Shown: piece after piece, positions 24,425 to 47,435 of the stretch
How positions within the stretch are numbered: position 1 is the first letter of the stretch
Layout of the letters: every line of letters begins with the position of its first letter
Origin: an uncultured bacterium
GTDB lineage: Bacteria > Planctomycetota > UBA1135
NCBI GenBank assembly: GCA_937919925.1
Contig: CALFOT010000076.1
Coordinates: 2,241-66,240, forward strand
Direction of reading: 5' to 3'
DNA length: 64,000 nt
The notes under the pieces: generated by a model
The model's input: the letters and a program-made list of their open reading frames with translations, nothing else
Told to the model about the DNA's origin: nothing
Database searches by the model: none
Translations under genes and position numbers: made by a program

Positions 24425-25936
<1,512 letters not shown>

Positions 25937-29445: not shown

Positions 29446-30024
29446 TCAGGAAGCGCTGCCTAGACCAGCGAAGCCCATGAAGGCCATCGACAAACTGCCC
29501 GCAATGATTAGCACTAGCGCCATCCCCTGAGCGATTTTCGGCACTTGCGCGCGCTCGGCATCTTCACGAATGCTGGCCATCAGCACCAGCGCCAAAGTCA
29601 GACCCAAACCAGCGCCGATGGCGAAGAACAGGCCTTGGAAGAAGTCGTACTCCTTGTTGGTTTGGAAAATCGCCAGACCAAGAATCGCACAGTTGGTTGT
29701 GATCAGCGGCAAGTAGATACCGAGTTGCTTGAATAGCACGGGGCTCACTTTCTTAATCACCATCTCCACGATCTGCACCAAGGAAGCGATGACCACAATG
29801 AAAGAGATCAGCTGCAGGTATGGAGCATGCGGCAACAGGAAAGTATTCAGCGCCCATGCACAAATGCTGGTGAGGACCAGCACGAAAATGTTGGCCATAC
29901 CCATGCGCAGGGCGGTTTCTACGCGCCCGGAAACGCCCATAAAAGGGCACAAACCCAGAAAGTAGGCCAAAGTGAAGTTGTTCACCAGCACGGTTGAGAC
30001 CAGAATCCAAATCAAGTCACCCAT
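29446..30024 (-). CDS. rnfA: Rnf complex subunit A
   Basis: NNFTLAYFLGLCPFMGVS, LGIYLPLITTNCAILG, LSMAFMGF. Confidence 0.95.
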   Translation of the reverse strand: MGDLIWILVSTVLVNNFTLAYFLGLCPFMGVSGRVETALRMGMANIFVLVLTSICAWALNTFLLPHAPYLQLISFIVVIASLVQIVEMVIKKVSPVLFKQLGIYLPLITTNCAILGLAIFQTNKEYDFFQGLFFAIGAGLGLTLALVLMASIREDAERAQVPKIAQGMALVLIIAGSLSMAFMGFAGLGSAS

Positions 30025-30677
30025 CAGGCTGCCCTCCGTTCACCGCTTTCTTCTGCAGCAAGTTCTTTCTGCTTGTGCTTTTTTCGCTCCGTCCACCAGT
30101 TCATGCCGAGCAGCCAGAATCCCAAAGTGAGGAATCCACCCGGGGGCAAAATCATCACCACCCAAGGCTCGTAGTTGTCGCCGAATAGTGGAATATTCAG
30201 GAAGCTACCCATGCCCAAGATTTCGCGTACGCCGCCCATCATGAGCAAAGCAATCATGAAGCCAGCACCGGAGCCAACAGCATCCAACAGTGCGCGTCCC
30301 ACCGGGCGCTTCGAAGCAAATGCTTCTTGGCGACCAAGAATCATGCAGTTCACCACGATCAAGGCGATGAAAGCGCCAAGTTTTTTATGGACCACAGGCA
30401 CGGAAGCTTCCAGGCCCATGTCGGCAACCGTCACGAAAGTGGCGATGATCATGATGTAGGTCGAAATGCGAACTTCGCCGGGAATGAACCGTTTTAGCAA
30501 CGAGACGAACAGGCTCGAACCGCACAGCACAAAGAATGTGGCCACGCCCATGGCTAGGGCGTTCTCTACCGAATTGGTGACCGCCAAGGCGGGGCACAAA
30601 CCGAGCATTTGAATCAGCACGGGATTTTCTTTCCAAATGCCGCGGAACAGATCTTGTTTAGCAGTAGTTTCGCGCAT
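30024..30677 (-). CDS. rnfE: Rnf complex subunit E
   Basis: ENPVLIQMLGLCPALAVT, LIVVNCMILGR, GVREILG, ILPPGGF. Confidence 0.95.
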   Translation of the reverse strand: MRETTAKQDLFRGIWKENPVLIQMLGLCPALAVTNSVENALAMGVATFFVLCGSSLFVSLLKRFIPGEVRISTYIMIIATFVTVADMGLEASVPVVHKKLGAFIALIVVNCMILGRQEAFASKRPVGRALLDAVGSGAGFMIALLMMGGVREILGMGSFLNIPLFGDNYEPWVVMILPPGGFLTLGFWLLGMNWWTERKKHKQKELAAEESGERRAA

Positions 30678-31339
30678 TAGTGACTACCTCCGTGGTCGTA
30701 GGCTTGAATCAAGGGATCCCAACGCTCAAAAGCTTCGTTCATAATTCGAATCACCGCGCGCGACGAAATCGTGGCGCCGGTGATCATGTCAATTTCATGC
30801 AGATCGCCTTTCCCGGCACCCTTTTTGACTCCTGTCAGCGGCAGAAGCGCGGTAGAAAATTGACTGAGGAACTCCTTGTTCTTCTCAATTGCATCGCCAA
30901 GGCCCGGGGTTTCCTTTGATTCGAGTACTTTCATACCCATCAAGCCGCCGGTTTCTGGGTGGTAGCCAAAAATGACTTTTACTTGATCTTGAAAACCTGC
31001 GCGGTTGTGCATCACAGCAAAACCAACAGGGTTGTTGTGCGCGTCGTAACCGACAAACACGCGTTCAAAATCCTTGGCATTTGCGCCTTCAGGAAGATCG
31101 CTCAGCAGAGTTCCATCCACCAAGTAAAGCGTGGCAAAGGATGCAGGTTCTTGCAGCACCAGGCCGACGGCTTCGCGCATCATTTTTTCGCGGTAAGCCA
31201 AAATGCGTGGTTGCGTGGCCTCATAAACCACCACGAGCAGCAAGCCGGCAAGCATGCCCGCAATTGCAAGGGTTGCGATGATACTGAAGGAGGAAGCGCT
31301 ATCGTCCGCAGGCACCGTGTCTGTGGGGGCATGGCTCAT
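30677..31339 (-). CDS. rnfG: Rnf complex subunit G (covalent FMN)
   Basis: N-terminal TM; ETPGLG and ITGATISS. Start at ATG 31339, overlapping the rnfD stop (ATGA). Confidence 0.92.
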   Translation of the reverse strand: MSHAPTDTVPADDSASSFSIIATLAIAGMLAGLLLVVVYEATQPRILAYREKMMREAVGLVLQEPASFATLYLVDGTLLSDLPEGANAKDFERVFVGYDAHNNPVGFAVMHNRAGFQDQVKVIFGYHPETGGLMGMKVLESKETPGLGDAIEKNKEFLSQFSTALLPLTGVKKGAGKGDLHEIDMITGATISSRAVIRIMNEAFERWDPLIQAYDHGGSH

Positions 31340-32361
31340 GACTTGGCCTCCGCTTCTTTCGCCTTTTTCACTTTCGGCTGTTGCCCAAACACACGCGGGC
31401 GGGTGCTGCGGTTTAGGAATGGTACAAATGCATTCATAAACAGAATGGAATACATCACACCTTCCGGCAGGCCACCCCAAACGCGAATCACCACCACCAG
31501 GATTCCAATGCCGGCGCCGAAAATCCAGCAGCCGAGGTTGGTAGTGGGGGAAGTGACCATATCCGTTGCCATATAAATCGCACCTAGCATCAAGCCGCCG
31601 GAAAAGAGCATGAACCATGGGCTTGGATAAGTGCTTGCATCTACCAGGTACAAAGTGCCGGAGAAAAGCACCACGGCGGCGAAAATACTCGCAGGAATTC
31701 GCCAGTTCAGATAGTTTTTCCACGCTAGAAACATGCCGCAAAGCAAAATCAGCAAGCCGAAAGTTTCACCGACAGAACCCGAGGTATTGCCGAACAGCAA
31801 ATCACCAAAGCCGGTGTTGGTGTTTTCAAATTTGAATAAGCCCAGAGGAGTCGCGCCGGTTGTGCCATCGACGCTATGCGGGCTCATCAGCGGCAACGCG
31901 AAGTTGTCGCCGCGCAAAGCACTCCAGGCACCATCGGTAGTGGGCCAAGTCGTGATGGCCACTGGGAACGCGGCCTGTAAAAACGCACGCCCGAGTAACG
32001 CCGGGTTAAATGGATTTTGGCCCAAGCCACCGAAAATCAACTTGCCGAAGGCAATGCCAAAAAATCCACCCAGAAAAGCCATCCACAGCGGCATTCCTGG
32101 AGGCAAGGTCAAGCCGAGCAGGATGCCAGTAATCGCCGCCGAACCATCATTTAAAGAGCCTTTCCGGCCAACGAATCGTTCGGTGAGGACCGCGCCACCG
32201 CCTGCGGCCAGCAAAATCAACAACGCCGAAGGGCCGAAGAAGAACACTGAGGTTGCGATAATCGGAACCAAGGTCGCGACCACCGTCCACATGATGCGCG
32301 GCGTGGAATCCGGGCCAAGCACGTGGGGCGATGCGGTGAGTAGTAGACGAGGTTCGCTCAT
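31336..32361 (-). CDS. rnfD: Rnf complex subunit D
   Basis: SPH, FGGLGQNPFNPAL, TGATPL FMN site, GSVGET, MATDMVTSP. Confidence 0.95.
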   Translation of the reverse strand: MSEPRLLLTASPHVLGPDSTPRIMWTVVATLVPIIATSVFFFGPSALLILLAAGGGAVLTERFVGRKGSLNDGSAAITGILLGLTLPPGMPLWMAFLGGFFGIAFGKLIFGGLGQNPFNPALLGRAFLQAAFPVAITTWPTTDGAWSALRGDNFALPLMSPHSVDGTTGATPLGLFKFENTNTGFGDLLFGNTSGSVGETFGLLILLCGMFLAWKNYLNWRIPASIFAAVVLFSGTLYLVDASTYPSPWFMLFSGGLMLGAIYMATDMVTSPTTNLGCWIFGAGIGILVVVIRVWGGLPEGVMYSILFMNAFVPFLNRSTRPRVFGQQPKVKKAKEAEAKS

Positions 32362-33686
32362 ACTTTGACTCCCTCACTGCGCAGGGTTGCTTTTGCTACG
32401 CCGAACAGATGGCTTAGCGGAATGTGCGACGGGCAAACGTAAGAGCAGCAACCGCACAACATACAAGTAGAGAGATGGTTTTTATCGTACATCTCCATGT
32501 AGTTTCTATGCAAACCTAGGCTGCCAAGATGCTGGGGATCGAGAAACACCGGACATGCATCCAAGCAGTGCCCGCACTTGATACACGGGTAAGTGGCTTG
32601 CGGATGCGCCTCGGCTTCATTCAACACGACCACGCCGGATGTGCCCTTCAAAATAGGAGTATCCAGGTTGCCTTGTGCCGGGCCCATCATCGGGCCGCCC
32701 ATGACAATCTTGCTGGCGTCGTCAGTTAAACCACCGCAAGCATTCAAGACATCACGCAGCTTCATGCCGATGGGAACAATCAAGTTCCGCGGCTTTTTAA
32801 TGCCACTGCCTGTGACGGTCAAAATGCGTTCTATCAATGGCATGCCGGTTTCAAAAATCTCCGCAATCGCTGCGACTGAAGCCACATTCATCACCACCAC
32901 GCCGACGTTCATCGGCAAACCTCCTTCAGGAACTTCGCGATCGAGAACGGCCTTAATCAGCATTTTCTCGGCACCCTGAGGGTATTTGACGGTCAGGGGG
33001 AGTATTTCAATATCAAGATCTGCGGGCACGGAATCGCGCATAATCTTGATGGCGTCGGGCTTGTTGCGTTCGATGCCGATCACCGCTTTACTGATACCGA
33101 GCACCTTCATCATGATGCGCGTACCAACGTGCACCCGCTCTGGATACTCCACCATCGTGCGGTGATCGGTGGTGAGGTAAGGCTCGCATTCGCAACCGTT
33201 CAGCAACACCATATCGATTTTTTGATCCGCTGGTGGTGACAGCTTGACGTGGGTAGGAAACGCCGCGCCCCCCATACCCACCAAACCGCCGTCTTGAATC
33301 GCTTGGAGCAGTTCGGCAACGGAGAGTCCTTCCCAGCGTGGGATGATGCGCGGTCGCGGCATTTGTGCACTATGCGCCTCTACATCAATCACAATCGCCG
33401 GACTGTAAGAACCATCTGGATGGGGACGGCGCTCAATATCGCGCACCGTGCCAGAAGCAGAGGCGTGTATCGCTACGGAAACAAAGCCGCCTGCTTTGGC
33501 AATCTTGTCGCCGCGCTCCACACGGTCTCCTTTTTTCACCAGCGGTACTGACGGCGCGCCTATATGTTGACGCAGCGGTAGCACAATTTGACTTGGGAAG
33601 GGAACACGTCGGATTGGTACATCCGCCGTGAGGTCTTTTGCCTCAGGTGGGTGCACTCCGTTACGGAAGAAGTCCTTGCCGAACAT
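32358..33686 (-). CDS. rnfC: Rnf complex subunit C
   Basis: GVHPP, QHIGAP, GMGGAAFPTHVK, NGCECEPYLTTD, YPQGAEK, GGPMMG, two CxxCxxCxxxCP motifs. Confidence 0.96.
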   Translation of the reverse strand: MFGKDFFRNGVHPPEAKDLTADVPIRRVPFPSQIVLPLRQHIGAPSVPLVKKGDRVERGDKIAKAGGFVSVAIHASASGTVRDIERRPHPDGSYSPAIVIDVEAHSAQMPRPRIIPRWEGLSVAELLQAIQDGGLVGMGGAAFPTHVKLSPPADQKIDMVLLNGCECEPYLTTDHRTMVEYPERVHVGTRIMMKVLGISKAVIGIERNKPDAIKIMRDSVPADLDIEILPLTVKYPQGAEKMLIKAVLDREVPEGGLPMNVGVVVMNVASVAAIAEIFETGMPLIERILTVTGSGIKKPRNLIVPIGMKLRDVLNACGGLTDDASKIVMGGPMMGPAQGNLDTPILKGTSGVVVLNEAEAHPQATYPCIKCGHCLDACPVFLDPQHLGSLGLHRNYMEMYDKNHLSTCMLCGCCSYVCPSHIPLSHLFGVAKATLRSEGVKV

Positions 33687-33710: not shown

Positions 33711-36700
33711 TTAGTTAAAAGGCTCCGCGCGTGTGAGCCACTTTGCGAGATCTTTCTCTTTCGGGTTCAACGGAGTGCCGGGGTGAATGATGCCTACCGG
33801 GCAGGCTTCTGCGGCCTTGACCAGCTGCTGGAAAGTTCCGGCCTTGGGATCCCCGATTTCCGCCAGCTTATCCGCGTTGTAAACGAAGAGTTTGTTGTTG
33901 AGGTTCGTGCACTCATTGCACGAGGTGCAACGCTCCGTATCAATGTACGGATCCATGCCGTGATCATCGCTTTCTTCTGTGGCCACAGCTACGGCGACGG
34001 CAGCCGGGGCGGCCGCTGGAGATGGCGCTGGTGCGGTAGAAGCACTGGCTGGTGCACGCTTAGGTGCAGGTGAGGAGGCTTCAGCAGATGCGGTACTCCC
34101 AAAGAGTTCTGCTTCCACAGCCAAGTCGAGTGGCGCCAGCGCTTCCATACTTTGCGCTTGGGTCAAGATTTCTTGCACGGTTTTGCCAGCGCCGGAGCGC
34201 AACAATCCCTCGGCCATACGGCGCGCAACCACTTGTGGGTACACGGTACGCAATTCCAGGATTTTGGCCTCGTGTTCCGCTTTGAGCGCGAGGATTTGTT
34301 GATCAAACGCGCTTTCTAGTTCGGCAGTCACGCTATCGCGTGCGCTGCTACTCACGCGTTCGCCAGCCATTTCCTTCAACTGATTCCACAAACGTAAGCG
34401 GTCTTCTGCGAGTTGCACGATTGGGTAGGAGGCTTGCATTTTGCGCAACATCCGTTTGCTATCGAGCACATGGATGAAAGGCTTTTTGCCTTGCCGCTCG
34501 TCGGCACTCATCGCAACGTACTCGGCAAAGGGTACTAAATCGTTGCTCTCATTTGCCGGGCGGAAATGCTTTTTGAAGCGCCCTTCACAAGCCGCCCAAT
34601 CGGCGGTGGTCATCGGCTGCTCCATCTCCGCTTCGTTGCCGTTGGCATCGACGTACTTCAATTTGTAGCTAGGCCAATCGGCCTCAAGCGCCGGGTTGCC
34701 ATCCAAATTCAGACACTCTGAGAAAGTGGCACCGTTGTCAGGATTGTATTCCAGTGCTGGGAATGCGCGCGATTCGAGTGCCATGCGCGCCGAACGCGGA
34801 CCGGCATCATCGGCAATACCGTGCTCTGGAGGGCAAGCCGAATGTAGGATGAAGATTGCTGGGTGCTTCGATTGTAGGCCGCGCAACACGCCGCCGAGCA
34901 AGTGCGAAGCGGTGGCCTGTGAAGACTGCAAAACAAACACATTGCGGTGTGCCATCGCTAATAACGACAGCTCTTTGCGGATTTCAACCTTGCCAGACTG
35001 ATCTTTGCCGAACATCGCCATGTCGGAGATCTGTCCGGTGAATCCTGAGGTACAAGCTTGGCCGCCGGTATTGGAATACACTTGCGTATCAAGCACTACC
35101 GCGCGAATCGGCAAACCCGAAGCCAACATACGCGACAGGTTTTGGAAGCCAATGTCCATCATGGCGCCATCGCCACCCACGGCGAAAATTGGCGGGCACA
35201 TCGCGAACTCTTCTTCATGGAAGAGCTTCCAATCGAAGTGGGCAAACTCGGCTTCGTGTTTCTCTGCGTTGTACTCGCCGGCAAGCTCCAACTCTGCGCG
35301 ACGTACACCGATGAAACCATCGGCCATCTTGCGCATCTGCCCTTCGAAAATACCAATCGCAATCGAGGGCGAATCCTGGAACAGGTGGTTGACCCATGGG
35401 AACGGGTAGGGGTTGTACGGGAAAGTACTGGCCCACACTGAAGTGCAACCGGTGGAGTTTGCAAAACCAAGTGGCGCGCGCCCATTACCGGATGGCCCTT
35501 CTACATAACGCCAACGTAAATCCTTCAGATTGCGAAGCGCAGCAGTGATGCGCTGTATCGTGTCGCGCCGCCGCGGATCGAGCGGCACGTCGACCGAACT
35601 ATCCTCCGCCAGAATTGCTTCGATATCCACTTCGTTAGTGACCAAACCACGCGCTTTGGCATCCAATCCCGCAATCATGCCATCCAGTTTCGCAACATAA
35701 GCCTCTACTCGTGGACCCATCATTGCGGTGGTTGCCGAAATCACCAAGTGCAGCGAAGTTTTTTCGCCGCAGCCCATACACGCGCCGTCGCCGCCGGCCA
35801 TCGAAAGGTAATTCTCCTTTTTCAACAGCATCGAAGACAGCACGCCAATGCCTTCATTGAGGCTCGCGATTTTGACGTACTTGTCATCAGTCTCCGGCAG
35901 TTCTTCCCAGAACGCCCAGTTGCGTCGCAGCATGGCCACTTCTTGATCTGTTTGCTTGATGGTGACCAGCGCATTGTCTGGGCAAACATCCACACAAATG
36001 TTGCAACCCTTACAAGTTTCAGGGTTGATAGTAATCGAGAGCAACGCACCCTCGCCCTTACTCTTAGCTTCCGGACCATCGAAGAACGGTCCGGTCTTAG
36101 CCAGCGGGAAATCATCAATCACCGGATAAATCACCGTGAAGTCCGCTTCGAGTTCCGCGCGTCGTTCTGGTGTCGTCGCCATCTTCTCCAAAACATTCGT
36201 AAAAGCGGGGCGCAGAATCGCACCGAAAGTCGTGAACGGCGCACCCTTCATCAGCGTGCGGCACTCGTTCGCTAAGGGCTTCACCACGGTGTTAAAACGC
36301 TTGATACTATGCACTTTGCCCGCGTGTTTGGCGGCGCGCTTGAGCACGTCATCGATAGAAGTCACCAGACCAGGAATCGCCGTATCCGGGCATTGTGTCC
36401 AGCATTGGCTACAACCGGTGCAGTTCTCGGGCACGAACTTCGGAATCTCAAAACGCACATCGGTCATATCGCGCATCGTGCTGGTTGCAGCCGGAATCGT
36501 GGCCGTGGCAGCAAATGGATCGGCAATGATTTCTTGACCGGTGCGGTAAGCGTGACCTACCTGTTCCCAGAAACGTCCGGGATCGGCGAGGCCTTTTTCA
36601 GCTTTGGTGTTCGCCATGGACGTTGGAATTTGCGGCACGGCGGCTTCCGCCACACCATCATCGCTGACGGTAGCAAGATCCAATTGCTGCAACTCTTCGT

Positions 36701-38771
36701 AGCCGCGTTTGATGACGCGCAAGTTATCGGCAACCACCGCATCGCCAAGATGGCCGAATTTTTTCTGCAACTGTTTATGGATGGCGTTGAAGAAGGAATC
36801 CTCTTCAAGACCAGCTTCGTGCACCATCGGTGCCGCGTGGAAAAATGCGCCCATAAAAGCGGTGCCTTGCATGCGGTAGCGGAGTCCTTCATTGGACGAC
36901 TCATCTTGCGCAATTTTGAAGCCATCCACGAACCAGACTTTGATTTCCATGTCGCGGATGTGCTGCTGCGTTAAGCGCGGCAAGGTATTCCAAAAATCTT
37001 GTGCAGGCAGTTCGCTCTGAATGATGAACGTGCCGCCGCGCGCCAAACCTTTAATTGGGTTGGAATGGCGGAACACATTCGGGTCGGGCGATAACACCAC
37101 ATCCACACGTGACAATTCGCAGTTAATACGAATCCGTTCAGGCGCCAGCGAGGCATAGAAAGTCGTCGGCTGCCCTTTTTTCTCCGAACCATATTTCGGG
37201 TTCGCCTTCATGCTTAAACCGAGCAGTTCGGCGGCCGTCACCGCCAGGTTTTTACCCATGGTGATCGCACCCCAGCCACCAATCGAGTGGACGCGGATAT
37301 TGGTGGTACCCTTCGGCAACAAATCCACGACTTCACCCGGATCCAGGGCCAAATCGGCAAGGTCTGGATAACCTTCCAAGAGCTCCTCTTGCCAAATCTG
37401 GAGCTTCGGCATCCGTGTGTTTTTGCGAATGAAATCAATGCCTAGATAAAATTGGCGCAGCTTTTTGCCGCCTTCGAGCATGTTGTCGACGGCCGCAATA
37501 ATGGAATTAGGCTGCAAATCGCGCGATCCCATGCCAAAGCAACCAGAGTAGAAATCTGGCACCTCTGTGCTTTGTAGAGCGGTCAATTTTGGGTGGGCAC
37601 CTTCGTTGCCTTTGCGGCCCTTCTCTACGCCCATCGCGAGTGCAGCACGAATTTCGCGGATCAGCGGCGCCTCAACGGCCAGTGGCTGATCCAAACGCTC
37701 GAGCACCAAAACGCCCTTTTTGCCGCGCAGTAATTTGGTAATCAAATCCGAAGGGAAGGGGCGGAACATCGTCATGTTCAACACACCAATTTTCAAATTG
37801 CGCTTTTCGCGCAAATAATCCACCACTGCTTCCGCGTTTTCCGTTACCGAGCCTTGGCCAGCGATGACGTAATCCGCATCCTCCAAGCGATAGCCCATCA
37901 CGCGCTGATATTGACGTCCGGTCAAGGCCGCGAATTCGTTCATCGCTTGATCAGCAAGATCGGCGATGTGGTCGAAGTAATACGGACGTTGCGCGGCCAC
38001 ACCTTGCATGTAGCTGTCCTGGTTTTGCACCACGCCAATCATGGCTGGGTAATCCATGTCGTACAGCTCCGGAATGCGTCGCCGCTTGGCGCCAAACACC
38101 AATTTTTGCGCATGCGTAGGCGAATCAATCATGTCGGAGGGATCGCCGAGATACTCCGCAATCAACTCACGCTCAGGAAAAGTGGAAGATTCGATCGAGT
38201 GACTGGTTAAGAAGCCGTCTTGCGCATTGATGCCGGGGTTCAAACTCAGCTCGGCAATACGGTGCGAAATCAAATTCAAATCAGCGGCTTCCGAAACGTT
38301 CTTGGCGAACACTTGAAAGAATCCGGTGTCATCCACAGCATGATAATCATCGTGACCGGCGTGCACATTCAACGTGTGCTTGGTCATCGCACGGCACGCC
38401 ACATTCAACACATAAGTCAAGCGTTTACCCACCGCTGGGTAAAGCGATTCATGCATATAAGCAATGCCCTGACCACTAGAAAAGTTGGTCGCGCGTAAGC
38501 CCATCATGTTCATGCCGGCGGTTACCGCAGCAGCAGCATGTTCGCCTTCTGGTTCAAAGAACAATAGGCGACGGCCGAAGACGTTGGTCTTGCCCGCAGC
38601 CATTGCCGCGGCCCAACCTTCTCCCATCTGCGTGGAAGGAGTGATTGGATAAGCGCCAGCGGCATCGCTCGCAGCAGTTTCCATTTCCACAATAGCCTCA
38701 GAGCCATCTGTGGTGATCGACACGCCAGGGTACTTCGGGGTGCCGGTGCTTCCGTTTAAAGGCGTGCTCAT
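33711..38771 (-). CDS. nifJ: Pyruvate:ferredoxin oxidoreductase-like multidomain 2-oxoacid oxidoreductase (NifJ/PFOR type) with extra C-terminal ferredoxin
   Basis: YPITPS, YGSEKKG, CTGCSQCWTQCP, CKGCNICVDVCP, GACMGCGE, NSTGC, GGDG, DTQVYSNTGGQ; tail CTSCNEC...CP. Substrate not established. Confidence 0.88.
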   Translation of the reverse strand: MSTPLNGSTGTPKYPGVSITTDGSEAIVEMETAASDAAGAYPITPSTQMGEGWAAAMAAGKTNVFGRRLLFFEPEGEHAAAAVTAGMNMMGLRATNFSSGQGIAYMHESLYPAVGKRLTYVLNVACRAMTKHTLNVHAGHDDYHAVDDTGFFQVFAKNVSEAADLNLISHRIAELSLNPGINAQDGFLTSHSIESSTFPERELIAEYLGDPSDMIDSPTHAQKLVFGAKRRRIPELYDMDYPAMIGVVQNQDSYMQGVAAQRPYYFDHIADLADQAMNEFAALTGRQYQRVMGYRLEDADYVIAGQGSVTENAEAVVDYLREKRNLKIGVLNMTMFRPFPSDLITKLLRGKKGVLVLERLDQPLAVEAPLIREIRAALAMGVEKGRKGNEGAHPKLTALQSTEVPDFYSGCFGMGSRDLQPNSIIAAVDNMLEGGKKLRQFYLGIDFIRKNTRMPKLQIWQEELLEGYPDLADLALDPGEVVDLLPKGTTNIRVHSIGGWGAITMGKNLAVTAAELLGLSMKANPKYGSEKKGQPTTFYASLAPERIRINCELSRVDVVLSPDPNVFRHSNPIKGLARGGTFIIQSELPAQDFWNTLPRLTQQHIRDMEIKVWFVDGFKIAQDESSNEGLRYRMQGTAFMGAFFHAAPMVHEAGLEEDSFFNAIHKQLQKKFGHLGDAVVADNLRVIKRGYEELQQLDLATVSDDGVAEAAVPQIPTSMANTKAEKGLADPGRFWEQVGHAYRTGQEIIADPFAATATIPAATSTMRDMTDVRFEIPKFVPENCTGCSQCWTQCPDTAIPGLVTSIDDVLKRAAKHAGKVHSIKRFNTVVKPLANECRTLMKGAPFTTFGAILRPAFTNVLEKMATTPERRAELEADFTVIYPVIDDFPLAKTGPFFDGPEAKSKGEGALLSITINPETCKGCNICVDVCPDNALVTIKQTDQEVAMLRRNWAFWEELPETDDKYVKIASLNEGIGVLSSMLLKKENYLSMAGGDGACMGCGEKTSLHLVISATTAMMGPRVEAYVAKLDGMIAGLDAKARGLVTNEVDIEAILAEDSSVDVPLDPRRRDTIQRITAALRNLKDLRWRYVEGPSGNGRAPLGFANSTGCTSVWASTFPYNPYPFPWVNHLFQDSPSIAIGIFEGQMRKMADGFIGVRRAELELAGEYNAEKHEAEFAHFDWKLFHEEEFAMCPPIFAVGGDGAMMDIGFQNLSRMLASGLPIRAVVLDTQVYSNTGGQACTSGFTGQISDMAMFGKDQSGKVEIRKELSLLAMAHRNVFVLQSSQATASHLLGGVLRGLQSKHPAIFILHSACPPEHGIADDAGPRSARMALESRAFPALEYNPDNGATFSECLNLDGNPALEADWPSYKLKYVDANGNEAEMEQPMTTADWAACEGRFKKHFRPANESNDLVPFAEYVAMSADERQGKKPFIHVLDSKRMLRKMQASYPIVQLAEDRLRLWNQLKEMAGERVSSSARDSVTAELESAFDQQILALKAEHEAKILELRTVYPQVVARRMAEGLLRSGAGKTVQEILTQAQSMEALAPLDLAVEAELFGSTASAEASSPAPKRAPASASTAPAPSPAAAPAAVAVAVATEESDDHGMDPYIDTERCTSCNECTNLNNKLFVYNADKLAEIGDPKAGTFQQLVKAAEACPVGIIHPGTPLNPKEKDLAKWLTRAEPFN

Positions 38772-39619
38772 ACTGCAAAACTCCGCAATGATTTCTGTTG
38801 TTCAGGGAACTGTGCGCCTTCCACCCAGACAATCGCCTTGGTGGGACAACGCTCAATGGCTGCGTGTGTAGCCAACTCGTTTTTGTCGTAGTTCACGACC
38901 GCAAGTCCATCGACCATGTCGATGAGACCGTCTTCTGCGTCTTTCGCGCAGATGCCACAACCAGTGCACGCCACCGCGCACAAATCCTGGGCGGGGGAGC
39001 CCTCCACCAAACTCTTGCATTGCACCAAAAGCTCTTGCTCAATCGGCATCAACACAAACAAATCTTTGGGGCAAATCTCGACACAATCATTACATGCGGT
39101 GCAGAGGTCGGGCGCAACAATCGGCAAGCCCGTATCGCTCATATGGATGGCGTCGAAATCGCAGGCCACGGCGCAATCGGCCAAACCAAGGCAACCCCAA
39201 TTACAGCCTTTGCCGCCACCGCTGACGGCTGCCGCTGCTTGGCAGGATGGATGACCTTCATAGGTGGACTGTTGAATCGCGACATCGGTGCCGCCTGCGC
39301 ACAACAAGCGGGCAACGCGTTTATTGGCCTCACCAGCATCGACACCCAAGTAGGCGGCAACATCCGCGATGTCATCGGGCCCCATCACGGTGCAGCCAGA
39401 AGGTTGCTGCTGGCCGGCGACTAAGCCTTCGGCAAATGCGTGGCAACCAGGCGTGCCACAAGCACCGCAGTTTGTGCCAGGCAGAAGTTCCTCGGTTTGG
39501 TTGATGCGCGGATCTTCCCACACCCTCAATTTGCGGTTTGCCGCCGCAATGAAAATGCCGAAAGCCGTGCAGACCCCGCCAAGGCTCAACGCAGAAACCA
39601 GTAGAGCCGATCCGGACAT
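38768..39619 (-). CDS. rnfB: Rnf complex subunit B (polyferredoxin)
   Basis: N-terminal TM; LPGTNCGACGTPGC, CNWGCLGLADCAVACDFDAI, CTACNDCVEICP, CTGCGICAK. Confidence 0.93.
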   Translation of the reverse strand: MSGSALLVSALSLGGVCTAFGIFIAAANRKLRVWEDPRINQTEELLPGTNCGACGTPGCHAFAEGLVAGQQQPSGCTVMGPDDIADVAAYLGVDAGEANKRVARLLCAGGTDVAIQQSTYEGHPSCQAAAAVSGGGKGCNWGCLGLADCAVACDFDAIHMSDTGLPIVAPDLCTACNDCVEICPKDLFVLMPIEQELLVQCKSLVEGSPAQDLCAVACTGCGICAKDAEDGLIDMVDGLAVVNYDKNELATHAAIERCPTKAIVWVEGAQFPEQQKSLRSFAV

Positions 39620-39628
39620 GAAATGTGA

Positions 39629-40630
39629 CTAAACCTCTTCGAGGTGCGCTTTGCCGAGCAAGAACGCGGCAAGCTTGTCGACCGGATTGGCCGAGATTGC
39701 AGTTTGGGAGTGCTCCACAGCAGGCGTTTCGGCGCTGGCCAAAGCTTGCAGTTGAGCAAAATCTTGTTGTTGTTGCCCGATGCTCAATCCAGCACGAGGA
39801 TGGAATTGCGGAGCCCCGGGTAGTTCGATGCCAACCATACGCGCAGCCAGCGTGCTGCCTCGGCGTGGGTCGTGGGCGAAACGTGCGGCGGCTTGTGGGA
39901 CGACGGCGGCAATTCCAGGACCTTGAAACGACACAAAGTCATCCAAGCCTAGGCAATCGCTGGTTTGAAGTACCAACACGCCAGGCGAAATCAAACGTGC
40001 CAACGGTGCTGGCGGGCAATCCTCTCCGTAGACGAGGATTACTTTGAAATGGCCATCAATGTACTCACCCAGGTTGGTGGTTTGAGCGCCGCTATTGGCG
40101 AGTTCAATCACAATCGTTGGAACCAGATTCCGTTGTGCCGAATTCCAGTTTTTGTACAGGTAGGCTTCGAACAGACCAGCGTGTTCGGCTTCGTTGTAAA
40201 GCCCAGCTTTGGCAAGTTCCACAGCATGCGCGGCACCAAAAGCACGACCGATGTTTTTCAGCGTACGGGACAGTAAGCAACGAAGGTTTTGGCCTTCTTG
40301 CAGAGTTACTTGGTTGAGGGAATCACCAGCATCCATCAACTCCACCATCACATCCAGCGCTCGCTCGATCACCGGGCCAGCACTCGCCACCACCGAGGTT
40401 TTATTGGTTGCGAAATGTTCGAAACGCACGGCGTCAATACGACCGCTGGCAAAGCTGCCGAGACTTTTTTCGGCGAACTCCTGTTGTTTGGAAGTATCGC
40501 CAGTGACATGCGCTAGCGAAGTGCGCAGCAAACCAACCGCAGTGGCTAACGAAGAGCGAAAATCGCTCAAGGAAGCGCTTGCAGCGGTCTTCACCGCATC
40601 GGGGCAGTTGCAGGGTGAGTTAGACGGCAT
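39629..40630 (-). CDS. Hypothetical protein; degenerate paralogue of the TPP-binding domain of the neighbouring PFOR
   Basis: Overlaps the upstream beta-subunit gene; aligns by eye with the PFOR segment ~34715-35327 but lacks GDG and the Fe-S cysteines. Confidence 0.75.
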   Translation of the reverse strand: MPSNSPCNCPDAVKTAASASLSDFRSSLATAVGLLRTSLAHVTGDTSKQQEFAEKSLGSFASGRIDAVRFEHFATNKTSVVASAGPVIERALDVMVELMDAGDSLNQVTLQEGQNLRCLLSRTLKNIGRAFGAAHAVELAKAGLYNEAEHAGLFEAYLYKNWNSAQRNLVPTIVIELANSGAQTTNLGEYIDGHFKVILVYGEDCPPAPLARLISPGVLVLQTSDCLGLDDFVSFQGPGIAAVVPQAAARFAHDPRRGSTLAARMVGIELPGAPQFHPRAGLSIGQQQQDFAQLQALASAETPAVEHSQTAISANPVDKLAAFLLGKAHLEEV

Positions 40631-41567
40631 GACGATCCAGTTCGGCGTTAATGAAAGCCATCTTCTCCTCGGGGGTGCGCTTGGTTACTTGGCGCAGCTC
40701 CTCGTAACGAGGGAAGGATTCGTCGCGGAAGAACAGACCTACGCGCACGCGGTCTCCTTCGGCAAGGCGTCGGGCTTCGTGGATGTCACCTGGATTATGG
40801 AAGACTTGCGACTTGTAAATCTTATCGGTGTTGGCGTCTTGAATGCCGTCTGGGTGCGACAGTACATCGGTGACTTGTGGATCTTTAATCGCCGCTGCGA
40901 AGATATCCGGTGTGAACACTGGGCAACGCTGCAAAATACGCACAAACGAAAAACCTTTATGTGCTTTGGCGGCCTGCAAAGTTGCGGCCAAGTGCGACGG
41001 CATCCAGTCGGCGGTTTGCGCGACGAAGGAAGCATTGGTGACGCCCAGCGTGGTTTGTAACGGATTCAGCGGCGGCAGAAAACTACCTTTAGTTTGCGTG
41101 TTCGTTTTAAAACCCTGCGGCGTGGTTGGCGAAGTTTGTTTCTTCGTCAGGCCATAGATGTTGTTGTCCAACAACAACACGGTCATGTCGATGTTGTAGC
41201 GAATGGCATGAATCCAGTGGCCGGCGCCAATCGAAGTGCAATCGCCGTCGCCCATGGTGACGAATACATCCAAATCTGGGCGTGCCAGTTTGACACCGGT
41301 GGCGATAGGGAGTGCGCGGCCGTGAATGCCGTGGAAACCGTAGGTTTCGACATAGTGCGGGAAGCGGCTCGAGCAACCAATGCCGGAAACAAACACCGTT
41401 TTCTCGGGCTTCAGCTGTTCGATGGCCAACAGGCGGTGGACCGCGGCAAGAATGGCGTGGTCACCGCAGCCTGGACACCAACGGGCAATTTTGCCCGCGT
41501 AGTCATCCATTTCGAAATGGCGGTCATCGGTGGAGCCACATTCGAGTAGGGAACAGGGGGAACTCAT
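40620..41567 (-). CDS. korB: 2-oxoacid:ferredoxin oxidoreductase beta subunit (KorB-like)
   Basis: WCPGCG, SGIGCS, HGRALP, GDGD, NNIYGLTK, QRCP. Start overlaps the alpha stop (ATGA). Substrate specificity inferred only. Confidence 0.9.
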   Translation of the reverse strand: MSSPCSLLECGSTDDRHFEMDDYAGKIARWCPGCGDHAILAAVHRLLAIEQLKPEKTVFVSGIGCSSRFPHYVETYGFHGIHGRALPIATGVKLARPDLDVFVTMGDGDCTSIGAGHWIHAIRYNIDMTVLLLDNNIYGLTKKQTSPTTPQGFKTNTQTKGSFLPPLNPLQTTLGVTNASFVAQTADWMPSHLAATLQAAKAHKGFSFVRILQRCPVFTPDIFAAAIKDPQVTDVLSHPDGIQDANTDKIYKSQVFHNPGDIHEARRLAEGDRVRVGLFFRDESFPRYEELRQVTKRTPEEKMAFINAELDRHAV

Positions 41568-43471
41568 GCTTTTACCTCCGCAGAAAGTTTCTTCTCGATG
41601 ACATCGACGATATCGCCAGGGCTCAAAGGTTGGCCAAGTACGCGCGTCCAGCAATCGACATCGACTAGGGTGATGGCGCGCAGCAGCGTAGTGAGCTGAC
41701 CGCGACGTCGGTTTTCTTCGTTAATGTACGGCGCGTTGGGATCGTCGCTGTAGTTGATTTCAATTGCCATCACTTGCTTAAAGCGCTTAAAAATTTCGGT
41801 AATCCCTGGCTCCATCGGCGACAAGAAAGTTAAGTTTACCGATGACACACCAAGGCCTTTGGCGCGCGCAATCGCTGCAGCTTCTTCGATTGCACCACGA
41901 GTGCTGCCCCAACCAATCAACAACAAGTCATTGCTGTCCGGGCCGCAAATGTGCGGCGGCGACAGAGTGCTTTGCAACACCGCAAGTTTGCGGCTGCGCA
42001 TTTCACTCGACAGTTGATTCATCGCTGGGTCATAAGTGACACAGCTATTTTGATCGTGGGCCAGACCGGTAGCCGTGAATTCACCACCTTTTTGACCCGG
42101 CACAATACGCGGGCTCAAGCCGGTTTCGAGATCCCAGTCCATCGGGCGGCTGCCTTCGGGGAGAGGGCTCAAATCAATTTCTGGAGCGTGCCAGCCGGCA
42201 TCCAGCACCGGGCGCACAAAGGGCTGCACTCCAGTTGCTAGGTTGGCGTCGGTAAGAACGACGACCACCATGCGGAAGGCCTCGGCGATACGGCGCGCCG
42301 TAACCATGCAATGGAAACACTCCTCCAAAGTGGAAGGGGCCATGATGACTTTGGGCGAATCGCCAGGCATGCCGTAAAGAGTGGAGAGCAAATCAGATTG
42401 CTCCACTTTGGTGGGCAAGCCGGTGGATGGGCCGCCGCGTTGGACATCCACGATGACCAGCGGAGTTTCCGTCATGACGGCTAGGCCAATGAACTCGGTT
42501 TTCAGCGCCATACCAGGGCCCGAAGTCACCGTGAAGGCCACTTTGCCGGCGAAGGAAGCGCCAATTGCCACACCGATGGCGGCGATTTCATCTTCAGCCT
42601 GGTGGACGATTCCACCCAAATCATCGTAAATCTCGCTGAGATAGTGAGATACGGATGTTGCCGGGGTGATGGGGTACATTGAGCAGAGCTCCAAACCGGC
42701 AACCACAGCACCCATAGCCAGCGCGGTGTTGCCGTTCATCACCACCAGATCTTCCGTGACCTCTAGGCAAGGGACGTTGATCTGAAAGCTCATATGCTCT
42801 GCAGCCCAGGTCATGCCGGCCTCTAAAAGGCGGACATTGCGTTCATACACGTCTTGAGACTTGTGCCGGAACTGCATGGCGATCTGCGCCTTGACCTTTT
42901 CGACGTCGCGCATGTAAATCCACGACATCAGACCCAGCGCGAACATGTTCTTGCCCTTACGCGGGTTATCCACAATCTTCAGGCACTCGACCTCCATCGG
43001 CACCTTGACAATGTGATAGTTCTTCGAGGACAGTTCTACTAACGCTTCCGCCCACTGCTCACGCACCTTTGGGTCTTGGTGGCTTTCCCACATTTCCTCC
43101 AACAGGATGGTGGCATCATCGGCAATCGCGCCTTGGCGGTGCCGGGCGAGCAAAACCTGCTCGTTGAAAGCAATTACCAACTTCGTTTGATTACCCCAAT
43201 TGGTAATCTTTTCAGTCCCGATACGAATCCGAACCCCACTGGCTCCTCCAGGAGAGCGCGGCGGCGGCTGAATTTCCGCAGGGATAATCTCAACAGTCCA
43301 GGCACCGTTGCCCATTTTGGCGGAAACCGCACCGAAGCTCTGTCCGCATTTCTGTGCGCCCTCCCCAGAGTCCGACACAATCTCAAAGATGTGTTCGGGC
43401 AGGGTATGAACGCTAGCTGCGGTTTTAGAGGAGAGAGAAGACACTTGGTCTTGTTGCGAGTTTGGGCTCAT
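41564..43471 (-). CDS. korA: 2-oxoacid:acceptor oxidoreductase alpha subunit (gamma-alpha fusion, KorA-like)
   Basis: SDSGEG, NMFALG, YPITPAT, QAEDEIAA, TSGPG, QRGGPSTGLPT, GWGST. Start set at MSPNSQ. Confidence 0.9.
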   Translation of the reverse strand: MSPNSQQDQVSSLSSKTAASVHTLPEHIFEIVSDSGEGAQKCGQSFGAVSAKMGNGAWTVEIIPAEIQPPPRSPGGASGVRIRIGTEKITNWGNQTKLVIAFNEQVLLARHRQGAIADDATILLEEMWESHQDPKVREQWAEALVELSSKNYHIVKVPMEVECLKIVDNPRKGKNMFALGLMSWIYMRDVEKVKAQIAMQFRHKSQDVYERNVRLLEAGMTWAAEHMSFQINVPCLEVTEDLVVMNGNTALAMGAVVAGLELCSMYPITPATSVSHYLSEIYDDLGGIVHQAEDEIAAIGVAIGASFAGKVAFTVTSGPGMALKTEFIGLAVMTETPLVIVDVQRGGPSTGLPTKVEQSDLLSTLYGMPGDSPKVIMAPSTLEECFHCMVTARRIAEAFRMVVVVLTDANLATGVQPFVRPVLDAGWHAPEIDLSPLPEGSRPMDWDLETGLSPRIVPGQKGGEFTATGLAHDQNSCVTYDPAMNQLSSEMRSRKLAVLQSTLSPPHICGPDSNDLLLIGWGSTRGAIEEAAAIARAKGLGVSSVNLTFLSPMEPGITEIFKRFKQVMAIEINYSDDPNAPYINEENRRRGQLTTLLRAITLVDVDCWTRVLGQPLSPGDIVDVIEKKLSAEVKA

Positions 43472-43488
43472 AAGCACAAAATTCCTAC

Positions 43489-43517
43489 CCCACCGTCGAA
43501 ACGCTGCCGACGGTGGG
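43489..43517 (-). promoter_or_regulatory. Stem-loop in the 5' leader of the oxidoreductase-rnf operon
   Basis: CCCACCGTCG (43489-43498) / CGACGGTGGG (43508-43517), 9-nt loop, adjacent to the AGGA upstream of the start codon. Confidence 0.45.
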
Positions 43518-43612
43518 AGGGTCGCACCTATTATGCACTCTCTACCAAAAGGTATGTAGTTATTTTTGTTTCGATTTTGTGCCAATTCTTAACGAATCCG
43601 TATGATTTCGGC

Positions 43613-47328: not shown

Positions 47329-47435
47329 TGTTCTAGGGAGCTGCTGGGTGAAGAGCGAAATCTGCGCCGACAGGATAACTCCGGCGGCTATCAAATTGTG
47401 GTCAAACAAAAACTCCTTTCCGGCGTATAGGTGCC

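Follow-up and report, generated by a model that had tools for sequence, protein, structure and literature searches.

Gene organization around X

The window analysed here is a stretch of 64,000 nucleotides from an uncultured planctomycete; the gene under study, termed X, lies on its reverse strand in a cluster of oxidoreductase and Rnf genes (Table 1). The open reading frame was recovered at exactly the position given in the first-pass annotation, with the same ATG start and a length of 333 aa. The gene order around X is always korA-korB-X-rnfB-PFOR-rnfCDGEA: a KorB gene was found upstream and an RnfB-like gene downstream in 73/73 loci, and the rnf block downstream (29446..33686 in the window) is conserved. 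The korB stop and the X start overlap, by 11 nt here and, in numerous loci, by 8 nt, so that X is most likely made together with KorB; 9 nt separate the X stop from the start of the rnfB-like gene. The probable true starts of korB and korA are the ATG codons at 41570 and 43474, respectively.

KorA scored 498.7 bits against TIGR03710 (cut-off 482.75) and matched PDB 6n2n_A at 7e-73; KorB, related at 4e-50 to its solved counterparts, matched PDB 5b48_B and 6n2n_B, and the RnfB-like protein reached 75.7 bits against TIGR01944 (cut-off 68.7). The long PFOR matches PDB 6cin and 1b0p from GGDG onward, its residues from about 1146 to 1190 being unaligned to the solved PFORs. Three elements make up its C-terminal extension: a segment resembling a coiled coil, a linker rich in Ala and Pro, and a ferredoxin domain with a single cluster (1609-1663). 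In the Solemya velum symbiont, an rnfBCDGEA operon was described in which rnfB and rnfC flank a PFOR gene, interpreted by the authors as a means by which pyruvate feeds Rnf (PMC4287430); korAB, X and the Y proteins described below go unmentioned in the passages of that paper dealing with this arrangement.

Table 1. Positions of X, its parts and the neighbouring genes in the window
Feature	Position	Strand	Basis
Gene X (P0001), 333 aa + stop, ATG start	39629..40630	(-)	ORF and translation
X residues 1-122, N-terminal region	40265..40630	(-)	Conservation; predicted KorA-contacting part
X residues 123-276, core matching PFOR 1146-1365	39803..40264	(-)	hhalign, motif counts
X residues 277-315	39686..39802	(-)	Alignment A1, columns 340-410
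X residues 316-333, conserved C-terminal peptide PVDKLAA(W/F)LL.(Q/K)A.L	39632..39685	(-)	Alignment
korA, fused gamma-alpha subunit	41564..43585	(-)	POR + POR_N domains, TIGR03710
korB, 2-oxoacid:ferredoxin oxidoreductase beta subunit (TPP domain)	40620..41654	(-)	PF02775 1.8e-29, TIGR02177
rnfB-like polyferredoxin, N-terminal hydrophobic helix	38768..39619	(-)	PF04060 + Fer4 domains
Long PFOR, 1686 aa, every cofactor motif present	33711..38771	(-)	Pfam
PFOR residues 1146-1365, domain VI part matched by X core	34677..35336	(-)	hhalign
rnfC	32358-33686	(-)	Pfam RnfC_N/Complex1_51K
rnfD	31336-32361	(-)	Pfam NQR2_RnfD_RnfE
rnfG	30677 to about 31300 (tentative start)	(-)	Location between rnfD and rnfE only
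rnfE	30024-30677	(-)	Pfam Rnf-Nqr
rnfA	29446-30024	(-)	Pfam Rnf-Nqr

Conservation of X

X is a real gene under purifying selection. Its dN/dS, a measure proposed in the first-pass annotation, was about 0.08 (0.076 in comparison to locus L003), comparable to the values of 0.04-0.08 obtained for the neighbouring genes. Relatives of X form at least 380 representatives, clustered at 50% identity, of constant length, mostly from Gemmatimonadota, Planctomycetota and Rokubacteria/Methylomirabilota; 58 close relatives were also found, and 126 relatives were retrieved by a scan pattern made from the C-terminal peptide motif. The position of the gene is fixed across several phyla, 12 columns are invariant in an alignment of 45 family members, and the 16 matches to the X profile that were listed from 401 genomes contain no in-match stop. 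The idea that X is a functionless, decaying remnant of a partial PFOR duplication is contradicted by these conservation data; although the loss of all cofactor motifs and a stem branch of 3.09 substitutions per site would agree with decay, we regard it as extremely improbable.

Existing resources place X in no known family. Neither Pfam (E <= 0.1) nor NCBIfam yielded a match, PF02775 failed to detect it, no family was common to the 45 members at E <= 10, and the ESM Atlas offered no usable match. Against PDB sequences the X profile gave chance-level matches only (an apolipoprotein at E 0.02, a sigma factor at E 0.13). A search of the full text of papers found nothing on X, Y, dead copies of PFOR or a third KorAB subunit. 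The homology described below provides an identity for this unannotated family, which comprises the clusters counted above and lacks a Pfam or NCBIfam model. RNA contigs from one library fall on X; as such libraries can contain DNA, these are weak evidence of transcription, and uncovered stretches in the same run carry no evidential weight.

Homology of X to domain VI of PFOR

The first-pass annotation had read X as a pseudo-enzyme copy of the TPP-binding domain of PFOR, on the basis of four segments aligned by hand to PFOR, and had named window positions 34715-35327 for comparison. This region, PFOR residues about 1149-1352, is also the one picked by the tools, and all four segments reappear in the hhalign alignments, in which X 130-176 is paired with PFOR 1152-1198, GVLVLQTS with NVFVLQSS, GPGIA with HPAIF, and FAHDPRRGSTL with LEYNPDNGATF. 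The outcome of the pairwise comparison depended on the method. BLASTP of X against the neighbouring 1686-aa PFOR was not above chance (collinear HSP E 2.9, best HSP E 1.6), whereas profile-profile alignment of the two cores (X 123-280, PFOR 1146-1400) gave a score of 43.4, P 4.2e-6 and a probability of 86.8%. A HMMER profile of the X family run against its own genome found X alone at E <= 10 and did not reach PFOR. When alignment A1 was compared by hhalign to full-length PFOR, the single best match was to residues 1146-1364 (P 3.6e-4, E 3.7e-4), with the runner-up at P 0.033.

As controls for the profile-profile comparison, shuffled, reversed and unrelated templates were scored. Column-shuffled templates scored 13.7 on average (maximum 23.5) and block-shuffled ones 17.4 (maximum 32.4), the true score being reached in 0/150 cases in both series; reversed templates scored 20-23, and eight other neighbouring families 11-21. 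The TPP domain of KorB scored 20.6 (P 0.077), a dissimilarity indicating that X is not a copy of KorB. Nor was profile similarity found to the Rnf subunits of the cluster (RnfA-E, G), the hhalign scores being 11-19 (P 0.15-0.73).

A second, stronger line of evidence runs through Y, a family of PFOR-derived proteins. The X and Y families match over 282 columns with a probability of 98.9% and E 1.4e-17 (reversed templates scored 14-16), and Y matches the long PFOR over its whole length at E 6e-133; in addition, the X HMM matches the Y protein of genome G063 at 29.6 bits, with a genome-wide E of 2e-7. By way of Y, X 18-299 equals PFOR about 1019-1391, and together the two matches imply that X corresponds to the entire domain VI. 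The N-terminal region of X aligns to residues 221-340 of Y (P0324), while its direct match to PFOR 985-1145, although collinear, is not significant alone (hhalign, P 0.031); this region is therefore placed on PFOR through Y only. Taken together, these profile comparisons establish, at the level of sequence, the homology of X to domain VI (the thiamine-pyrophosphate, or PP, domain) of the long PFOR, from which it descends, and they bear out the pseudo-enzyme reading. A PP-domain fold for X would follow from this homology.

Compared with domain VI of the solved PFORs (PDB 6cin, 1b0p), X is a separate protein of 333 aa in which the order of strand-like motifs is kept (PP..V.V, K.VLVV, FVLQT, F.HDP..G). 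Its best-matching stretch, PFOR 1146-1190, falls in a part of the long PFOR left unaligned to the solved enzymes.

Loss of cofactor motifs and other features of X

The TPP-Mg binding motif is GDG-x(24-27)-N(N/T), which in PFOR reads GGDG...NTGGQ. X carries ELANSG at the GGDG position and the ...YSNTGGQAC... loop is deleted. As had been noted for X itself, the motif is gone, and this extends to the family: N[TS]GG occurs in 0/187 members, and an incidental GDG-x(20-32)-N pattern in 3/187, while both TPP motifs are present in 71/71 long PFORs. The [4Fe-4S] ligands of this PFOR (C.GCGE, TGC, GGQAC) are lost as well; no cysteine column of the X family exceeds a frequency of 0.34, and the median is 1 Cys per protein. 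The best reading of these sequences is that X is non-catalytic and cofactor-less. Since a redox centre is lacking in X, any role in electron transfer would be indirect. The delta subunit of 2-oxoacid:ferredoxin oxidoreductases is a ferredoxin with two CxxCxxCxxxCP motifs, and an identity of X as such an accessory subunit is excluded by its lack of conserved Cys.

Outside the core, the N-terminal region contains the conserved motif LG.FA.GRID..RF (X residues 57-70). Residues 277-315 comprise a conserved helix-like segment, S..QQ.E.L.QL.ALA, followed by an Ala/Pro/Glu-rich linker of variable length, and D318, L320, A321, A322, L324 and L325 of the C-terminal peptide vary little or not at all. 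A comparison of this peptide by hhalign to the C-terminal extension of PFOR found nothing. One candidate counterpart, PFOR ARRLAEGLLRAG (about 1515-1530), ranked in the top two of a PSSM scan in 6/8 PFORs, with scores that were all negative; as no recurrent site emerged from the same scan in 16 Y and 11 W proteins (W being a further family of PFOR copies), it was rejected as evidence.

The Y family

Y proteins (P0324-P0339; loci L089 and L092-L171) are annotated 'ferredoxin'. They are cofactor-less proteins of 735-893 aa, and the TPP motif was found in 0/16 family members and in 0/80 Y open reading frames. Y retains dead remnants of PFOR domains IV-V and the C-terminal extension, together with a live single-cluster ferredoxin domain (Fer4_13), the latter detected by its Cys motif in 80/80 Y open reading frames and in 10/10 of those scanned among the 16 family members. 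X, in contrast, has neither the domain IV-V remnants nor the extension, gives no Fer4 match and ends in its short conserved peptide. A quick tree places X inside Y, on the very long stem branch given above. The best explanation is that X is a minimal form of the Y group, made up of a pseudo-domain VI, a linker and the short C-terminal peptide.

Like X, Y follows korB directly, and where Rnf is present it precedes rnfB. korB was found upstream of Y in 39/49 loci. Where more than 3 kb of downstream sequence was available, rnfB follows Y in 20/38 loci; in the remaining 18/38 no rnfB follows, and neither PFOR nor Rnf was found within 3-10 kb, so these are korA-korB-Y modules standing alone.

Predicted docking of X on KorAB

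To our knowledge, solved KorAB enzymes are (alpha-beta)2 assemblies with no third subunit. The KorA and KorB proteins of the window are clear relatives of the two-subunit 2-oxoglutarate:ferredoxin oxidoreductases (PDB 6n2n/6n2o; 5b46-5b48), whose entries list alpha and beta chains only; in the present cluster, by contrast, korB is coupled to an additional gene.

A complex of KorA 233-636, KorB and X 18-295 was modelled, leaving out the KorA gamma domain (1-232). X was predicted to dock on KorA/KorB with a score of 0.85, the best of 3 controls being 0.00, and replacing KorA abolished the score. The mark passed by this model is reached by 116/157 solved complexes and by 2/215 mismatched pairs, a calibration outside which a model with custom alignments and three chains falls. 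At least 79% of contacts agree between the runs, and partner pLDDT is at least 70. On X, the predicted contacts involve residues 27-37, 55-78 and 95; conservation is higher at the predicted interface residues than elsewhere in X (0.61 vs 0.51, one-sided Mann-Whitney p 0.005). On KorA the predicted site covers 380-400, 422-455, 499-505 and 549-550, with no insertion there in comparison to PDB 6n2n_A. The predicted interface also includes the N-terminal tail of KorB (residues 6-12, S7 and L8 being invariant), which lies ahead of the region that aligns with solved beta subunits. The omitted gamma domain might cover the predicted site in the real enzyme, and the pass itself could draw on solved PFORs known to the predictor, where a single chain has its domain VI packed against domains I and II.

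About half of the most conserved residues of X fall outside the predicted interface (P171, D192, G193, A208, L210, P216, Q222, F251, H253, P255, R264 and P271). In a rival reading, the partner of X is the long PFOR or RnfB rather than KorAB: the old domain VI interface would bind PFOR domain I or VI, regulating or capping it, or X would link PFOR to RnfB. Such a partner would suit the descent of X from PFOR domain VI, its place directly before rnfB (73/73 loci) and PFOR (66/67), and the fact that the KorA model makes no use of the C-terminal peptide or of a second set of conserved residues. X is, however, coupled to korB and not to PFOR, its closest relatives, the Y proteins, occur in 18/38 loci as korA-korB-Y modules that have neither PFOR nor Rnf nearby, and the KorAB model passes where its controls do not; we therefore consider this partner unlikely. 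Of the two partners named in the first-pass annotation, the alpha/beta enzyme KorAB is thus favoured over PFOR, by the docking model and by the solitary modules.

In another scenario, the nucleotide-fold remnant has gained a new ligand or catalytic site, for example as a regulatory sensor through which CoA, acyl-CoA or a nucleotide would act on KorAB. R167, D192, Q222, H253 and R264 are invariant or nearly so and cluster in the core, and this polar cluster sits outside the predicted KorA interface; these residues could nevertheless equally be structural or form a second protein interface, and X has no similarity to any family of such function, which leaves this scenario quite improbable.

We rate just as low the prospect that X acts transiently in assembly or protection (insertion of Fe-S or TPP, shielding from oxygen), outside the mature complex. 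In favour of such a role, cofactor motifs are missing from X, its rate of evolution exceeds that of the neighbouring genes (dN 0.15 vs 0.05-0.10, in comparison to L003), and many of the hosts come, going by record titles, from habitats labelled oxic or micro-oxic (seawater and soil, for instance). Against this stand the stop/start overlap, which suggests synthesis in near-equal amounts with KorB, the ferredoxin domain built into the Y relatives, which fits a working subunit, and the confident interface model.

A proposed third subunit of KorAB

We favour, with moderate confidence, the reading that X is a non-catalytic, structural third subunit of KorAB, perhaps serving as an adaptor to a PFOR/Rnf assembly. 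An inactive subunit, structural or regulatory, had been proposed in the first-pass annotation, and a structural one fits the absence of the motifs, the low dN/dS, the strict synteny and the overlap of korB and X. Binding of X to KorAB is suggested by the model; an adaptor role, including a bridge to Rnf, is a further step that we infer. X would dock on KorA/KorB through its N-terminal LG.FA.GRID..RF motif and the RAFGAAR helix, and would thereby become a structural component of this 2-oxoacid:ferredoxin oxidoreductase, its third subunit. The remainder of X, with its conserved Rossmann-remnant face and C-terminal peptide, may keep KorAB beside PFOR, RnfB and Rnf. The single cluster of KorB may then exchange electrons with the tethered ferredoxin of PFOR and with RnfB, and not with free ferredoxin.

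W, Y and X derive from an active long PFOR and form a clear series leading from enzyme to putative scaffold, each with less of the parent enzyme retained. A tentative extension, to which we give clearly less credence, is that X, Y and W are copies of PFOR turned scaffolds, bolting one or two 2-oxoacid:ferredoxin oxidoreductases to Rnf, an ion pump of the membrane, with X anchoring KorAB. In such a fixed supercomplex, a ferredoxin domain on an Ala/Pro-rich arm, which may be likened to the swinging lipoyl-domain arm of 2-oxoacid dehydrogenases, would replace free ferredoxin, and the oxidation of 2-oxoacids (or reductive carboxylation) would be directly coupled to NAD(H) and to ion translocation.

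KorAB-type oxidoreductases, two-subunit enzymes in the solved structures, may thus carry a third subunit in these organisms and may be physically wired to Rnf. If true, energy would be conserved or spent in the turnover of pyruvate and 2-oxoglutarate by these widespread, uncultured bacteria in a manner unlike that of the textbook dehydrogenase complexes.

Gene organization around X

The gene under study, X (protein P0001), encodes a conserved relative of PFOR domain VI without the TPP-Mg or proximal-cluster residues, and lies between korB and rnfB. The genes from korA through rnfA, X included, are packed in one tight run: the start of X overlaps the korB stop by 11 nt, rnfB begins 9 nt past the end of X, and it runs 4 nt into the start of PFOR. 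X itself had no match in Pfam or NCBIfam. The longest open frames reach into the genes upstream of them by 406 nt (rnfG), about 0 nt (korA) and 91 nt (korB); the later korA and korB starts in the table are indicated by the conserved N-termini of relatives.

Features of the X cluster and its flanks (window positions)
Feature	Position	Strand	Description
fumarate hydratase	45697-47409	-	class I (Fe-S); flanks cluster
korA	ORF 41564-43585, probable start ATG 43474	-	fused gamma-alpha subunit
korB	40620-41654, probable start ATG 41570	-	beta subunit with TPP domain
X (P0001)	39629-40630	-	333-codon open frame, ATG start
rnfB-like	38768-39619	-	polyferredoxin
PFOR	33711-38771	-	1686 aa
rnfC, rnfD, rnfG, rnfE, rnfA	29446-33686	-	
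rnfG (longest ORF)	30677-31741	-	
glutamate dehydrogenase	24428-25879	-	flanks cluster
PPDK_N-domain protein	21313-24348	-	1012 aa; flanks cluster

The three flanking genes are consistent with 2-oxoglutarate and pyruvate metabolism, and are silent on the direction of the reaction. The PFOR is unusually long, and its score against TIGR02176 (417 bits) is under the 911 cut-off. The two Cys motifs of its ferredoxin domain V (784-795 and 920-931) are about 120 residues apart, and its C-terminal extension of ~290 aa (1400-1686) ends in an Ala/Pro-rich linker followed by a single-cluster ferredoxin (Fer4) domain at 1609-1663. The same long form recurs in over 100 relatives, which measure roughly 1650-1720 aa.

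X is a conserved gene family

X is a genuine gene. By word-indexed search, 58 relatives of 303-409 aa were recovered, all unnamed or hypothetical and none with a Pfam domain, and HMMER, run exhaustively over 1.84 billion representatives, returned 380 at E <= 0.001, 219 of them at E <= 1e-30; among the 150 matches listed, lengths were 237-457 aa. Twelve columns are invariant in the alignment of 45 X sequences (G128, F131, W162, R167, D192, P216, Q222, F251, H253, P255, L320 and L325), and a C-terminal peptide, PVDKLAA(W/F)LL, is conserved beyond a linker of variable length. Compared with the closest locus, L003 (78% identity), X displayed a dN/dS of 0.076, which is an upper-bound style estimate since dS is near saturation; neighbouring genes gave 0.04-0.08, and the dN of X (0.15) was the highest among the five genes compared. 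No internal stops were found within the match at the 16 places listed in 401 genomes of the window's phylum. A few relatives exceed the norm by ~60-120 residues (P0079, 457 aa; P0177, 444; P0046, 409; P0063, 398); P0063 is extended at its N-terminus by an acidic segment, the match in P0177 begins at its residue 111, and the extra length in these four may reflect alternative starts or small fusions.

Gene order around X is fixed. Scanning a single genome per species turned up 126 relatives, and 80 loci were kept. Counting only loci whose contig extends far enough, KorB was directly upstream of X in 73/73 and KorA upstream in 58/59; downstream, an RnfB-like gene followed directly in 73/73, with PFOR present in 66/67 and RnfC in 41/44. 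The few exceptions adjoin truncated matches. Going by record title, most hosts belong to Gemmatimonadota, followed by Planctomycetota and Rokubacteria/Methylomirabilota; Acidimicrobiia, Acidobacteriota and 'Deltaproteobacteria' are represented by one record each. Within the window's own phylum the distribution is patchy: the X profile matched 15 of the 401 genomes, the window's own included, and one of the 15 is a cross-match to a different family (Y, below). X was not found in the one genome of the same genus or the two of the same family that were searched (G286, G138 and G301, 89-92% complete), and is present in families of the phylum that are less closely related; the cluster may be passed as a whole from one lineage to another.

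Near-identical DNA occurs in public runs of nine studies, several of which may be the source of the window's assembly. One run labelled as metatranscriptomic RNA-Seq (X18) contributed six contigs at >=99% identity on the window, two of them inside X (39723-39879 and 39863-40018) and one spanning the rnfB/PFOR junction (38632-38863). These are no more than a weak hint of transcription, as such RNA libraries can contain DNA and contigs cannot show transcription.

Direct comparison of X with PFOR

The first-pass annotation had described X as a dead copy of the PFOR TPP domain, on the basis of four segments aligned by eye. BLASTP recovered this alignment at E 2.9, not above chance, and a HMMER profile of the X family, run on the genome that carries X, matched nothing but X even with the limit relaxed to E <= 10; viewed as single sequences, the two proteins are thus not similar above chance. 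Profile-profile comparison gave a different result. The X family against 71 long PFORs produced one standout match, at PFOR 1146-1364 (P 3.6e-4; runner-up, P 0.033), in which all four quoted segments recur, confirming the original observation. A second hhalign run of the two family alignments agreed (E 3.7e-4), and the score rose to 43.7-44.7 with 187 X sequences. When only the cores were compared (X 123-280 and PFOR 1146-1400), the score was 43.4, with a probability of 86.8% and a P value of 4.2e-6, so that the similarity to domain VI is above chance. Reversed PFOR templates scored 20-23 against X; 150 column shuffles (mean 13.7, maximum 23.5) and 150 block shuffles (mean 17.4, maximum 32.4) never reached the true score, and eight other families of the cluster scored 11-21. 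One of these eight, the TPP domain of KorB, was not similar to X (score 20.6, P 0.077), so X is not a copy of KorB.

Conserved residues of X pair with conserved residues of PFOR at F131/F1153, the AAR/VRR arginine, Y145/Y1167, W162/F1184, PP/PP, Q222/Q1282 and HDP..G/YDP..G. The N-terminal part of X could not be placed by direct alignment (P 0.031). The best-matching stretch, PFOR ~1146-1190, sits in a segment of the long PFOR with no aligned counterpart in the solved structures 6cin and 1b0p, which argues that X derives from this PFOR lineage and not from the TPP fold at large.

The motif losses reported for the single protein hold throughout the family. N[TS]GG occurs in 0 of 187 X proteins, an incidental GDG...N pattern in three, and cysteine does not rise above a frequency of 0.34 in any column, as opposed to the presence of both TPP motifs in 71 of 71 long PFORs.

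A family of larger proteins links X to PFOR

The cross-match, in the Planctomycetota genome G063, is a partial one (E 2e-7, X 108-185) to a far larger frame that follows korA and korB on its contig (L089, C232). It encodes an 861-aa protein (start codon chosen by us) of a family designated Y: cofactor-less, PFOR-derived proteins in the slot after korB. Its residues 339-861 share 35% identity with PFOR 1125-1686 (E 2e-83), the X HMM scores 29.6 bits on residues 347-425, and GDG, NTGGQ and the cluster cysteines are all absent from the domain VI part. A second contig of G063 (L090, C365) carries a shortened PFOR-like ORF without TPP or Cys motifs right before rnfC, and a separate canonical-length PFOR (1265-aa frame) is found elsewhere in the genome.

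Sixteen Y relatives (711-1399 aa) are annotated as 'ferredoxin' or unnamed. Ten were scanned against Pfam: all had a C-terminal Fer4_13 domain, a domain absent from X; five retained traces of PFOR domain II, in one case together with domain III, and none had POR_N or TPP_enzyme_C. The X and Y family profiles aligned over 282 columns (probability 98.9%, E 1.4e-17, score 146; reversed control, 14-16), X 18-299 corresponding to residues 221-591 of the Y reference P0324. Y in turn aligned with long PFOR over nearly its full length (probability 100%, E 6e-133), placing P0324 residues 200, 221 and 591 at PFOR 998 (the C.GCGE cluster motif), 1019 and 1391. By this mapping X matches practically all of domain VI, N-terminal part included. 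These two alignments, with the loss of the TPP and cysteine motifs, support the earlier reading of X as a pseudo-enzyme copy. The counterpart in Y of the X motif LG.FA.G is an insertion relative to PFOR, consistent with a docking element that would have been acquired after duplication.

Y-type clusters and the likely origin of X

A metagenome scan with the Y alignment identified 80 loci, termed Y-type, in which complete Y ORFs are 735-893 aa long. NTGGQ was found in none of the 80 and the C-terminal ferredoxin cysteine motif in all. KorB was upstream in 39/49 loci; at two loci, L105 and L145, it is set about 3 kb away from Y, with other sequence between them. Where more than 3 kb was available downstream, an rnfB-like gene followed Y in 20/38 loci, and the other 18 were korA-korB-Y modules with no Rnf genes in reach (3-10 kb downstream), L094, L095, L098, L105 and L106 being examples.

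The complete cluster reads korA-korB-Y-rnfB-W-rnfCDGEA, where W is a PFOR-like protein of 1233-1680 aa. In a set of W loci chosen for a long ORF at that place, and so not a random sample (L113, L114, L116, L117, L119, L124, L128, L141, L146, L155 and L166), none of the 11 has kept GGDG/NTGGQ, the cysteines of domain VI or the EPEGEHA motif of domain I, and nine retain both CxxCxxCxxxCP ([4Fe-4S]) motifs of ferredoxin domain V. Judged by these motifs, W looks like a dead enzyme kept as an Fe-S scaffold beside Rnf. X scored 55.8 against W (P 1e-5; reversed control, 17.5); by profile score, therefore, Y is far closer to X than W is, and W closer than active PFOR.

For the domain VI-like segment, a quick maximum-likelihood tree was built from 22 Y and 11 W sequences together with random samples of X (25 of 187) and PFOR (20 of 71). 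X, PFOR and W came out as one group each (SH-aLRT 99-100). With PFOR as outgroup, X was nested in Y beside the G063 protein, on a very long stem (3.09 substitutions per site) and with SH-aLRT as the only support measure. X is likely a shortened Y, and the family it truly belongs to is the Y/W group, itself undescribed.

A predicted KorAB-X complex

KorA 233-636 (gamma domain omitted), KorB 1-316 and X 18-295 were modelled together using alignments drawn from the same loci. The verdict was 'supports binding', with a score of 0.85 (0.81, 0.85 and 0.87 in three runs), for a run outside the tool's calibration (three chains, our own alignments); the packing of domain VI against domains I and II in solved PFOR structures might also have let the predictor pass by reproducing known folds. 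The best of three controls scored 0.00, as did an unrelated protein in place of KorA; the score mark is reached by 116/157 solved complexes and 2/215 mismatched pairs. The runs shared >=79% of contacts, with partner pLDDT >=70.

Predicted contacts involve X 27-37, 55-78, 95, 130-141 and 163-169, KorA 380-400, 422-455, 499-505 and 549-550, and KorB 6-12 and 299; the omitted gamma domain may cover the predicted X site. The predicted X interface takes in the LG.FA.GRID motif and F131, and its conservation exceeds that of the remaining X residues (0.61 vs 0.51, p 0.005). KorB 6-12 falls in an N-terminal tail, ahead of the part that aligns to solved beta subunits, in which S7 and L8 are invariant. 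X is probably a structural subunit bound to KorAB.

Comparison with known systems and proposed role

The closest characterised relative of X is catalytic PFOR domain VI. Common descent is upheld, but the TPP motif, the cluster cysteines and a match to the family HMM are absent in X. The two-subunit KorAB enzymes of known structure are listed in structure searches with an alpha and a beta chain and no other. The genome of the Solemya velum symbiont has a PFOR gene between rnfB and rnfC (PMC4287430); the accessible part of that account makes no mention of X-like or Y-like genes. Full-text searches of a collection that leaves out most subscription journals found nothing on dead PFOR copies or on a third KorAB subunit, so their absence from the literature is unproven.

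X would work like a pseudo-enzyme subunit, and lies outside the catalytic family. Y would be KorAB's own tethered ferredoxin, with a dead PFOR as its scaffold. In the window's type of cluster the active PFOR bears this extension and ferredoxin domain instead, and X retains the scaffold and C-terminal peptide only. From this arrangement, a ferredoxin on a dead scaffold in one cluster type and on the active PFOR in the other, we propose that X may anchor KorAB next to PFOR/RnfB/Rnf; the tethered ferredoxin and RnfB would then be common to both oxidoreductases. A second conserved face of X (D192, Q222, F251-H253-P255 and R264), together with the C-terminal peptide, could make the other contacts. 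A role as an adaptor to Rnf/PFOR is plausible, and X is probably an accessory oxidoreductase subunit made from a dead catalytic domain.
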